A DNA stretch of 39,118 nucleotides from Patescibacteria group bacterium. Lineage in GTDB: Bacteria > Patescibacteriota > Minisyncoccia > Phycocordibacterales > UBA2100. The stretch is from positions 1 to 39,118 of the forward strand of contig JANLHO010000004.1 in NCBI GenBank assembly GCA_024654485.1, given 5' to 3'. Under the pieces are notes generated by a model. It worked only from the letters and a program-made list of their open reading frames with translations, ran no database searches and was not told the origin of the DNA. A program made the translations under genes and the position numbers. Positions 36,085 to 38,916 of the stretch are shown one piece after another. Within the stretch, counting starts at the first letter, position 1. Each line of letters opens with the position of its first letter.

Positions 36085-36242
36085 ATGTCCATACTACCCC
36101 ACACGCCCGACCACGGGGAAGGCCGAAAAAGGTTCCCGACACCTTTTATTCTTGAGGAAAAGCGAGAGTTGATGCAATCGTTTAAGAGCAAACTCATCTT
36201 GCTCAATAAACGACTGATTCATGAGTAAAAAGGTTGTTCGCG

Positions 36243-37952
36243 TTATGTAAGTAAGGCTTGAAGAGCTTTTCTGTTTTTTGGACTAAATGAGTACCCATTT
36301 TTCTCAACTTCTTTCCAAAAGACTTCCTTAACTTCGTCATGGTTTCTCAAAAAAACAATCGCCTCTTGCTGGTTCGTAATCCTTTTCCGACGCGCACCGC
36401 TTACAATGCCAGAGAAATAGGAAGGCGTGCTAGATTTCAGGCTAAAATCCGCCTTCCATATTTGATGAACACAATTCCTTAGATGACCATCATATTCCGC
36501 AAATAAGTCTTCCACTGCCTGTCCAGCTGGGAGAACTATGAGAAACACTTTAGGAATATCCTTAACCTCCAACTTCTTAAATCCACTTCGTTCTGCTCCT
36601 TCTCCAGCGTCTTCTGTATGACGCTTTATAGAGTCCAAGCCACCGTCGCCATCTACAATAAAGTACGCAGCAGACCCGAGAATTTGTGGAGCTGCTTTTA
36701 ATAAATCGAGGTATCTGCCGACATCTGCTATTCCTTCCAAGCCCTTCGTTACATCAATCCCCACTTTTCTAAAAGCCTCAACGGTCAGATCTTTTTGATC
36801 TTCGATGAAGATGAGCCGATCACTTTTTGCAATTGTAAAATACGCGCCGAAGTTGACATCGCCCATGAGTTTTCCGACTTCAGAGACTTTCTGATCCGAT
36901 GCCTCCGTTACTAGGAGTGAAGATAACCGTTCTTCAGAAAGAATGTTCCACCTGACCCTTTCGCCGCCGCGTCTACTTGCAGCAAGCAGCGCAGGCGAGT
37001 GTGTAGAGACAACCATTTGCATATTGCTGAGCCAGGTCTCTGAGTTAATTTCCCCAGCAAGTTTAAGAAGAAGGTCCATATGCAGAAAAGACTCCGGTTC
37101 TTCCATCAGCCAAAGAGGGTGGTATTCACCCCGGTGCAGAGATCGATCGCTATCGAGAAGAAAGTGGGCAAGGTATAGAACTGTAGATTGTGCGCCCGTA
37201 CCTTGCGCCGTAAGTTCTATTTCGGGAGCTCCTTTATACCCTTGGAAGCTAATATCTGATACGTCAATAATTTGTTTTATGTTCCGGGGCAGATCTATCA
37301 TCACTCTCGAGCCGGGCCAAAATGCTTGGAGCGAATCGCTAATTGAGCGTGATAGATATTCGTTTGCAGATTTACGCATTTCATCCCATCGCTGTTCGAG
37401 ATCCTTTATTGCATGCGTAAGAGCTGCACCACGTCCCCAGTTTGCTAATAGACGTTGGCGAAGTTTCTTCTGCACATTGGCGAGCAACAACTTTCCCTCT
37501 TGCGGGTGTATGTAGGTCACTTCTACAGCACTTAGAAGCCAGACCACATCTTCCGGCAAATCGTCACTTTCCTTCCCGCCACCAATTATCCAGCTCGCGC
37601 CTACGGCATCCGAAATTGGTGTGTAGGTTAAAATTTTAGTAACGGTTAGCTCGTGCCCGAATTTTTTTAAAAGTCTTGTTTTCCTTGTCTTGGTGCTTAA
37701 AGCTTCCAAGTCAAAGGTTAAGCGGATTTCACTCCTGTTATAACCCTTTTTCTTAGCAAGAAACTCCGTCTTGTTGAGGAAGGAGCTATCAGAGTAGTAG
37801 TCATCGGTAAAGAATGCCTTAAGACTGTGGAAAATGTTTGTCTTACCGGCGTTGTTAACGCCGATGAGGTATGTCGCTTGGGACATGTCCACTTGTGTCA
37901 CTCCGCGAAAGCTACGGAAGTTCTTGATCTTTAACTCCTTTATCAAATTCAT
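36243..37952 (-). CDS. OLD-family nuclease: N-terminal ABC/AAA_15-type ATPase fused to a C-terminal Toprim-like domain
   Basis: IKNFRSFRG..., Walker A GVNNAGKTN, signature-like LTAQGTGAQS, Walker B/D-loop LWLMEEPESFLH and H-loop VVSTHSP. The C-terminus has LIFIEDQKD (Toprim Glu) and YFIVDGDGG (DxD). Clearly AT-richer than the rest of the window, by eye. Confidence 0.8.
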   Translation of the reverse strand: MNLIKELKIKNFRSFRGVTQVDMSQATYLIGVNNAGKTNIFHSLKAFFTDDYYSDSSFLNKTEFLAKKKGYNRSEIRLTFDLEALSTKTRKTRLLKKFGHELTVTKILTYTPISDAVGASWIIGGGKESDDLPEDVVWLLSAVEVTYIHPQEGKLLLANVQKKLRQRLLANWGRGAALTHAIKDLEQRWDEMRKSANEYLSRSISDSLQAFWPGSRVMIDLPRNIKQIIDVSDISFQGYKGAPEIELTAQGTGAQSTVLYLAHFLLDSDRSLHRGEYHPLWLMEEPESFLHMDLLLKLAGEINSETWLSNMQMVVSTHSPALLAASRRGGERVRWNILSEERLSSLLVTEASDQKVSEVGKLMGDVNFGAYFTIAKSDRLIFIEDQKDLTVEAFRKVGIDVTKGLEGIADVGRYLDLLKAAPQILGSAAYFIVDGDGGLDSIKRHTEDAGEGAERSGFKKLEVKDIPKVFLIVLPAGQAVEDLFAEYDGHLRNCVHQIWKADFSLKSSTPSYFSGIVSGARRKRITNQQEAIVFLRNHDEVKEVFWKEVEKNGYSFSPKNRKALQALLT

Positions 37953-37961
37953 AGGGTAGTT

Positions 37962-38009
37962 GGAGTATACTCAAAATACTCCCGCTTGACCCGTCTAGGT
38001 CACTAGACG
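37962..38009. promoter_or_regulatory. Two inverted repeats upstream of the OLD gene (candidate operators)
   Basis: GGAGTAT-n7-ATACTCC (37962-37982, includes a TATACT -10-like box on the minus strand) and the perfect CGTCTAG-gtca-CTAGACG (37992-38009). Confidence 0.5.
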
Positions 38010-38059
38010 TGGTGTCCAAGATGAGATATTTGTGATGATGTATAAATAATTCTTCATAT

Positions 38060-38340
38060 TTACCTCAAAAGTCTATCTACCGACACGTCGAGCGCATCTG
38101 CGATGCGCTTAATGGTCGAAAGTGTCGGGTTTTTCTTGTTGAGTTCCGGGCCATGATGTGGCCTAACTGTACCAAGTTTCCGCGCATTGCGAAATCGCCG
38201 TAGGGTGGCGCGGGGTGGGCTCTGATACCCAACACGGCCGGGGTGTGTTGCGTAGCATTCTACGTAACAACGGAGTCCCCCTGTTGCCGCTCGTCCTTTT
38301 CCAGTACCTTTTTGATCTGTTCGAAAAGCGTATATTTCAT
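38060..38340 (-). pseudogene. XRE-family HTH regulator gene interrupted by a ~92-nt GC-rich insert
   Basis: N-terminal piece MKYTLFEQIKKVLEKDERQQ (ATG 38340) runs into a TAG at 38262-38260. The C-terminal piece NARKLGTVRPHHGPELNKKNPTLSTIKRIADALDVSVDRLLR* (38188-38060) is in another frame and has no start codon. Joined, the two pieces have the length and pattern of a ~62-aa XRE HTH domain. Confidence 0.65.
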
Positions 38341-38361
38341 GCTTCTAGATACTCACACAAA

Positions 38362-38916
38362 TCAGGAGTTTGAGGAATCGGTTGGTTTTGGTGCCAGTTT
38401 GGCATCGATTTTGGCCTTGACGGCGTCCCGCCCCATTTCTGATGTCTTTATGTGGCAAAGCGGCAGATCGGATGATTCGGAAATATAGTCAATGAATGCG
38501 TCCCGCGCTTGCCTATCGGGTCGTTCGTGGCTGCTTCCGTCGAGCTCAATGACGAGTTGCGCCTGTACGCGCTCTTTGTCGCAGAGGACGAAGTCAGCGG
38601 ACTTCCTATCGATTTTGTTTCGCAGCACAAATTGATCTTTGTATGAAAGCCCCCTGTGCGGAACGAGCAAATGGCTGTAGTGGACCTGCGGGAAGATATA
38701 GAAACGGTCTACGTATAGTTCCCGCAATGTATTGAACAGTTCACGTTCGGTCTTCGCATCAAACAAATCCTGTTTCCTGTCATAGGCGAGCGGTCGCTCG
38801 CCGCCCGATGACAACCAGCGCCAGATCAGCGCCGCCGCCACAACGACAAGCAGCACGGCGAGGAGTACGTACAGCCCGATGAACGGATGCAGAGCAGCCC
38901 CCAGATCAAACATCAC
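38362..38916 (-). CDS. Membrane-anchored DUF2726-like protein (restriction-endonuclease-like fold)
   Basis: N-terminal TM (FIGLYVLLAVLLVVVAAALIW). ERELFNTL......IFPQV....LL.......RNKIDRKSADFVLCD......LVIELDGSSH......RDAFID fits the DUF2726 pattern with a D...E-x-D / PD-(D/E)xK-like core. Confidence 0.7.
   Translation of the reverse strand: MMFDLGAALHPFIGLYVLLAVLLVVVAAALIWRWLSSGGERPLAYDRKQDLFDAKTERELFNTLRELYVDRFYIFPQVHYSHLLVPHRGLSYKDQFVLRNKIDRKSADFVLCDKERVQAQLVIELDGSSHERPDRQARDAFIDYISESSDLPLCHIKTSEMGRDAVKAKIDAKLAPKPTDSSNS

Follow-up and report, generated by a model that had tools for sequence, protein, structure and literature searches.

Remnants of restriction-modification and other defence genes at cassette junctions, with small palindromic repeats beside them, are well known. 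The locus studied here bears likenesses to several described systems. With the gene-loss scars of defence islands it shares short 5' or 3' ends of a Mod methyltransferase gene, an XRE controller gene and a T5orf172 gene, standing head to tail between intact genes, as well as frameshifts within the locus and mosaic neighbourhoods in its relatives. As in the REP/REPIN-RAYT systems, including the GTAG-tagged REPs, its hairpin is a short palindrome with GTAG/CTAC that is dispersed, mostly extragenic and found past gene ends, and the genome encodes two RAYT-like Y1 proteins, each with its own flanking palindromes. Its small size, its hairpin potential and its position inside an apparent gene recall MITEs such as Correia, ERIC and RUP. 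Furthermore, one of the gene pieces comes from a family of 68-aa XRE proteins whose genes, in the manner of those of C proteins (XRE-type controllers), lie directly upstream of HsdM, Trypsin_2, T5orf172 and other genes. Finally, a stop codon in a hairpin right behind the first piece, with the second piece in another frame, is reminiscent of translational bypassing, as in gene 60 of phage T4, and of programmed frameshifting.

The window, i.e. the whole stretch of DNA that was analysed, comprises 39,118 nucleotides of a Patescibacteria group bacterium (Phycocordibacterales; UBA2100; assembly GCA_024654485.1, contig JANLHO010000004.1, here C20), whose genome (G000) consists of 819,577 bp in 60 contigs, is 97.7% complete and has a GC content of ~56%; its enolase is closest, at 65% identity, to those of Saccharibacteria MAGs. 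In a preliminary description of the window, a gene of the XRE family was taken to be split into two halves by an insert of ~92 nt, which, it was suggested, could be a small mobile structured element, a host REP-like insertion that had inactivated the repressor of the island, or an embedded non-coding RNA. Two ORF pieces in different frames are indeed present on the minus strand (Table 1), and, by alignment of the pieces to intact 68-aa XRE relatives, the intervening DNA begins behind GAC, where the XRE-like codons of the N piece end, and reaches up to AAT, with which the C piece starts; this shortens it from ~92 to 86 nt. In our reading, the region 38024-38340 is probably a scar, composed of what remained as genes of a defence island were replaced one after another, and not one gene plus an insert.

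Table 1. Features of the locus, listed along the minus strand (positions are those of the window)
Feature	Position	Strand	Basis or remark
DUF2726 gene, 184 aa	38362..38916	-	Pfam DUF2726, E 1.1e-24; neighbour upstream of the mini-ORF
Mini-ORF MKYTLFEQIKKVLEKDERQQGDSVVT and stop, 26 codons	38260..38340	-	ATG 38340, stop TAG 38262-38260
Mod 5' remnant (codons 1-18 of the mini-ORF)	38340-38287	-	Mod N-terminus profile, sister copies
Spacer, 86 nt	38189..38274	.	Gapless alignment to 68-aa XRE relatives
Two degenerate palindrome units, TGTTGCGTAGCA TTCTACGTAACA	38246..38269	.	Main hairpin of the preliminary description; REP-like
Stem CAACAC-n9-GTGTTG	38230..38250	.	Inverted-repeat search; mutually exclusive with the main hairpin
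XRE/HTH 3' remnant NARKLGTVRPHHGPELNKKNPTLSTIKRIADALDVSVDRLLR and stop, codons ~27-68 of a 68-aa gene	38063..38188	-	Family profile, codon alignment
T5orf172/GIY-YIG-type gene start, first 11 codons (MKNYLYIITNI)	38024..38057	-	Homology to L039
OLD-type AAA_15 ATPase gene, 569 aa, intact	36243..37952	-	Pfam AAA_15, E 2.8e-23

The mini-ORF begins 21 nt past the stop codon of the DUF2726 gene, and its N piece had been regarded as the first half of the XRE gene. On a profile of the XRE family built from eleven 68-aa relatives, however, this piece alone scored 3.6 bits, whereas on a profile built from 120 Mod N-termini it scored 15.2 bits. None of 30,000 random windows of the genome reached that value (maximum 9.1 bits), XRE N-termini scored 3.3 and -1.1 bits, and the sister copies described below scored 20.8-23.4 bits. 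By these scores, the piece matches the conserved N-terminal motif of Mod proteins (ifeqL..lLkkDeRLvsqdG). Among 116 genomes of the genus searched with the peptide, four have it (G034, G031, G088 and G089). At the DNA level, 38281-38329 is 86% identical to contig C16 of G034, and the truncated copies in the other three show 59-78% amino-acid identity. The copy in G034 (one of the set L010-L013) reads MHYGLFEQLKKVLEKDERLTAEGELLCN and then runs off the end of its contig, while those in G031, G088 and G089 end in NERLVAEGRI, DERLVAEGELNRATFSHS and DERLVAEPRIC, respectively, each followed by a stop codon. These sister pieces are cut after about codon 22. The gene directly in front of them is of the Fic, Zn-ribbon or AbiEii-like type, and strong hairpins come behind them; the XRE C part is absent from all four genomes. 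In the wider order, the best matches were the N-termini of ORFs of 530 aa or more with N6_N4_Mtase and TypeIII_RM_meth domains. Neither of these downstream domains is present in the window, where the ORF ends at 26 codons, and the 530-aa Mod has no match in this genome or in the four sister genomes. In wide searches for the N piece, a 30-aa peptide returned nothing at E up to 0.001 with phmmer against 1.84 billion representatives, and a word-based search with the 42-aa peptide of G034 gave no candidate.

Differences among the five copies of the Mod remnant fall mainly at third codon positions (58, against 31 and 12 at the other two), and therefore the piece has evolved as coding sequence. Such coding-type evolution fits descent from once-intact Mod genes, and a present role is possible too. 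On sequence grounds, these tests mark the N piece as a 5' remnant of a type III Mod gene, probably not of an XRE gene. A continuation of Mod coding into the spacer was also considered, and the weak gapped similarity to G034, extending to ~38245, was unconvincing.

The Mod 5' remnant thus recurs, as ~66 nt from the ATG onward, in five genomes of the genus behind different upstream genes (DUF2726, Fic, Zn-ribbon and AbiEii-like), and may be either a recombination anchor or a retained mini-ORF. Past the remnant, the hairpins of G031 (L011) and G088 (L012) read TTCTCGTATTC-TTGA-GAATACGAGAA and TTCTCACATTC-TTGA-GAATGTGAGAA, respectively, with both arms changed between the two, and they are followed by G-rich tracts, by more hairpins with TTTTGCAAAA centres and by TAGAAT motifs.

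The second piece, on the other hand, does belong to a dead gene of the XRE type, as had been proposed. It scored 52.9 bits on the family profile over positions 41-68 only, and 58.7 bits in a reading with two frame shifts, by which the match was extended to positions 27-68. Against Pfam HTH_3 it reached 21 bits (cut-off 23) over profile positions 30-54, i.e. the last two helices only. According to a codon-level alignment to L037, L039 and L004, the frame is disrupted twice in helix 3, the recognition helix, by the loss of 2 nt after 38164 and of 1 nt at ~38147: where the family has LG-x-x-R-G-Y-I-S-N-L-E-x-G-K, the window has LGTV-A/GGC CAC ATC ATG GCC-CG/GAA, which corresponds to LGTV(R)GHIMA(x)ELNKKNP. 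No complete five-helix XRE domain is found in one frame, and no ATG, GTG or TTG stands ahead of NARKLG.

The origin of the C piece is indicated by L039 (JGI Ga0210057_1001734), to which 38139-38024 is ~90% identical at the nucleotide level; the similarity covers the 25 codons at the end of the XRE gene, 4 nt of spacer and the beginning of the gene behind it (MKNYLYIITNI...). In L039 the 28-aa start of this next gene matches T5orf172 at 22.3 bits (cut-off 20). In the window the T5orf172 start ends after 11 codons, the 20-codon ORF at 37995-38057, MKNYLYIITNISSWTPRLVT and stop, being the beginning of a cut-off gene of this type, and the homology to L039 stops at ~38024, just ahead of the palindromes upstream of the OLD gene. 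The XRE 3' end and the T5orf172 start are colinear with L039, so the XRE piece would have arrived with its T5orf172 partner, which has since been deleted. Judged by these alignments, the XRE piece is a relic of a different cassette and not OLD's repressor; the notion of an insertion that knocked out a repressor of OLD fails because the piece belonged to another, destroyed cassette, and it carries two more frameshifts besides. Unlike the genes of C proteins, it has its first ~26 codons missing or replaced, its recognition helix frameshifted and its partner truncated, and for these reasons no function is expected of it.

Intact members of the 68-aa family directly precede genes for Trypsin_2 (with a ResIII/Eco57I protein), HsdM, T5orf172 and ProRS. 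The family has a near-invariant 3' end (NPTLSTIKRIADALxVSVDRLLK) and a divergent 5' half, and this 3' end shows 77-90% nucleotide identity between otherwise divergent members (L037, L039, L004, L050 and L051); it may serve as a recombination joint for the swapping of effectors. A decayed XRE 5' half was sought within the spacer by alignment to L039, L037 and L004 and by a three-frame profile search, which gave nothing; a faint resemblance of TLRRFR in the spacer to NLRQIR was judged to be due to chance.

The surroundings of the locus are variable as well. The OLD gene, the intact gene downstream, lies in a low-GC island, and its relatives (45-56% identity) occur in varied defence contexts, with neighbouring genes that are mosaic among them. 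In G132, which has the closest relative of the DUF2726 protein (55% identity), other genes come next, and synteny around DUF2726 is therefore not conserved. An intact orthologous locus was sought through OLD, DUF2726 and exact-protein look-ups, and none was found; synteny was not conserved, and the look-ups gave no other record for the flanking proteins.

Read along the minus strand past the DUF2726 gene, the proposed scar would open with what is left of a type III Mod gene, its first ~18 codons, and continue with a worn two-unit REP-like palindrome, TGyTACGTArCA, supplying the stop codon. Next would come ~57 nt of orphan DNA of host-like GC content, then an XRE regulator gene reduced to its last ~42 codons and interrupted by two small deletions, and then T5orf172, the former partner gene of the XRE regulator, of which the initial 11 codons remain. 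The OLD nuclease gene, preceded by its control region, closes the series. What each piece is follows from the tests described above, whereas the order of the joining events is what we infer. A succession of gene replacements accounts for the recurrence of the Mod N piece without XRE, for the extra frameshifts, for the cut T5orf172 gene and for a spacer that lacks element-like traits. Against it stand the origin of 57-62 nt, which it leaves unexplained, and the lack of a clean GC step at 38189. The locus also differs from the usual gene-loss scars in that no intact pre-loss locus was found and in that the junction between QGD and NARKLG, considered below, is more orderly than chance usually makes it.

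The spacer was described as GC-rich and hairpin-dense. The GC content of 38189-38280 (63%) does exceed that of the flanks (51% and 42%) and of the island, yet it is ordinary for the genome: the 86-nt spacer has 61.6% GC, the genome mean for windows of this length is 56.2% (sd 6.8), and 24% of such windows are as GC-rich or more genome-wide, against 2.7% in the low-GC island (36100-38400). At finer scale the GC profile shows a local peak and not a clean step, and an island edge at 38189 is therefore not demonstrated. Both reported stems exist, GTTGCGTAG-catt-CTACGTAAC at 38247-38268 and the CAACAC stem, the 3' arm of which overlaps the palindrome; the G.U pair ascribed to the former is an A.C mismatch on the gene-sense strand. 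Hairpins are no denser than expected by chance, with fold z-scores against dinucleotide shuffles of -0.85 (gene strand) and -1.66 (plus strand). Perfect hairpins with stems of 10 bp or more number 180 in the 820 kb of the genome, and its recurrent hairpin families include CCCAATACTT..AAGTATTGGG, ACTACGATGT.C-tata-G.ACATCGTAGT, GGGAATTTTT-tgct-AAAAATTCCC and CTTGTTTATAATCCGC-gggc-GCGGATTATAAACAAG.

Nothing in the spacer as a whole points to an embedded RNA or to a mobile element. A permissive Rfam search returned no family overlapping 38189-38280 at E up to 10, the folding lies within that of the shuffled sequences, and no promoter or terminator pattern was seen in the spacer. It is single-copy: normal and very sensitive BLAST (word size 7) found no second copy in its own genome, where only 32 nt around the palindrome match another contig (C59). 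No relatives were found in about 900 related genomes, phages or plasmids, among them 60 relatives, 116 genomes of the genus and 401 sampled across the order, and an exact 22-mer of the spacer had no match in 185,579 species genomes. Reading of the ends and flanks, together with an inverted-repeat search, confirmed that terminal inverted repeats and a target-site duplication are absent; the 86 nt differ from MITEs in lacking these features and a second copy. The palindrome accounts for 24 of the 86 nt, and the other 57-62 nt are orphan, with no second copy in the searched sets. We thus predict neither mobility nor a role as an RNA for any part of the 86 nt. Of the earlier proposals, that of a host REP-like element fits the main hairpin, a degenerate copy of a dispersed 24-nt palindrome, but not the remaining orphan nucleotides.

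The palindrome is built from a 12-bp self-palindromic unit, TGyTACGTArCA, in tandem arrays of 2-3 units. The copy in the window has two units, each one mismatch away from this sequence, and the stop codon (TAG) of the mini-ORF falls within it. It is one of two loci in this genome; at the other, C59:12846-12881, three exact units lie between convergent TPR and histidine-kinase genes. At C59:12600-12900, four different strong hairpins are parted by C-rich tracts, with the three 12-bp units at the end. The exact 24-mer, TGTTACGTAGCATGCTACGTAACA, also occurs in six other families of the order, and a contig scan found it in at least 120 stretches, several per MAG. Among the matches listed (L165-L284), the hosts are mostly Patescibacteria lineages, together with some MAGs labelled Gammaproteobacteria or Bdellovibrionales; the flanks are unrelated, except for a T at -1 and an A at +1 (at least 60% of sites); 85 of 121 sites fall in no long open frame; and the sites are mainly past gene ends and rarely between divergent genes (flanking ORFs ++ 33, +- 17, -- 13, -+ 4), often just past a hairpin with a T-run. 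The 24-mer was found in no viral contig, and no RAYT-like gene lies near it in 120 fetched loci. In the literature searched, we found no paper carrying its central 18-mer, TACGTAGCATGCTACGTA, and no report of the wide exact conservation of the 24-mer.

The two Y1_Tnp (RAYT-like) genes of this genome, of 221-222 aa, are located at C28:10023-10688 (minus strand) and C55:388-1056 (plus strand), and each is bracketed by a palindrome family of its own: ..ACCATGAGAT-nnn-ATCTCATGGT.. at C28:10004 and 10696, and TGTCCGAGGG-tta-CCCTCGGACA at C55:287 and 1073, the latter with more copies on C34, C55 and C58. This layout of RAYT gene and palindromes is REPtron-like, in a genome of ~0.8 Mb. The palindrome of the window departs from the REP/REPIN-RAYT pattern in that those RAYTs are bracketed by other palindromes, and in that it is a 12-bp tandem self-palindrome with two loci in the genome.

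These observations leave some room, though clearly less than for a scar alone, for the possibility that an undescribed family of tiny palindromes has spread across many Patescibacteria without a nearby transposase, and that one copy landed in the Mod remnant and ended it, in which case part of the 86 nt would be a real insertion. The inserted DNA would then be of a new kind, minimal and either mobile or bound by protein.

One observation in favour of the preliminary description concerns the junction of the two pieces. QQGD, with which the N piece closes, abuts NARKLG as (S/T)QGD abuts I(C/V)RALG in the XRE family, with no gap and no overlap. Joining the two pieces raised the profile score from 52.9 to 64.4 bits, and nearly all of this gain of 11.5 bits comes from QQGD, while the sister N pieces joined in the same way gained 1-3 bits. 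Random 22-aa windows gain as much with a frequency of about 5e-5, and after allowing for ~100-300 possible placements the match has a p of about 0.005-0.015. Under the scar model it would be a coincidence at roughly the 1% level, and it resists that model.

On this basis it could be argued that the first 18 codons of Mod were fused in frame to an XRE gene at about codon 22, and that a piece of host-like DNA, 86 nt long and with a REP-like palindrome, later split the fused gene between QGD and NARKLG; this is essentially the host REP-like insertion of the preliminary description. The exact abutment of the pieces in the XRE alignment and the gain on joining them speak for such an insertion, as do the resemblance of QGD-SV to the QGD-IV of the family, the host-like GC content of the spacer and its palindrome of a dispersed family. 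We nevertheless consider it unlikely. Codons 1-18 are clearly Mod, and two rare events, the Mod-XRE fusion and the insertion, would be needed within 15 nt; the dispersed unit is just 24 nt long, with unrelated flanks, and leaves 62 nt without a second copy; neither a duplication nor inverted ends mark the spacer; and the XRE gene is broken elsewhere too, its partner gene being truncated.

A functional non-coding element is less probable again. According to this explanation, the palindromes would be bound by a protein or act like a terminator, and the spacer would serve as a working 3' end or as an insulator that separates the DUF2726 unit from the OLD unit, or else would be a small RNA. It draws on the exact conservation of the 24-mer across distant lineages, on the location of its sites among the matches listed, mostly past gene ends (85/121 outside long open frames) and often behind a T-run hairpin, and on the sister Mod remnants, which also precede hairpins, those of G031 and G088 differing by changes on both arms. 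The copy in the window, however, is degenerate, with one mismatch per unit and an A.C mismatch on the gene strand; neither a T-run nor a terminator pattern is present; and the spacer has no Rfam match, no fold signal and no homologue.

An assembly artefact, in which a chimeric path would have run through short sequences shared in the community, such as the conserved Mod 5' end and XRE 3' end, seems slightly more remote still: the genome is of the metagenome type, in 60 contigs, both remnants are short and come from families whose ends are conserved at the DNA level across different loci, and the flanking proteins occur in no other record, but chimeric paths would not make two deletions of 1-2 nt or an orphan stretch of 57 nt, the neighbouring genes are intact, and several successive switches would be required within 330 nt. 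Translational bypassing or frameshifting into one protein can be rejected, as GAC...GAT lands in the frame of FAMRGN... and the frame reached by ACG...ACG ends after 12 codons, neither being the XRE frame; unlike the described cases, the locus has no take-off and landing codons for that frame, its pieces are of different families, and the second one is disrupted once more downstream.

Taken as it was originally posed, the finding is therefore ordinary, since the spacer behaves neither as a MITE, nor as an Rfam RNA, nor as a bypassed segment, and resembles REP elements in part. Only the exact 24-mer, being so widely conserved, may merit a separate study. For the locus itself, the result is a correction, which bears on reasoning about the control of the OLD nuclease, while the recurrent Mod 5' remnant and the cross-lineage palindrome bear on the shuffling of defence genes and on the tolerance of small repeats in the very small genomes of Patescibacteria.
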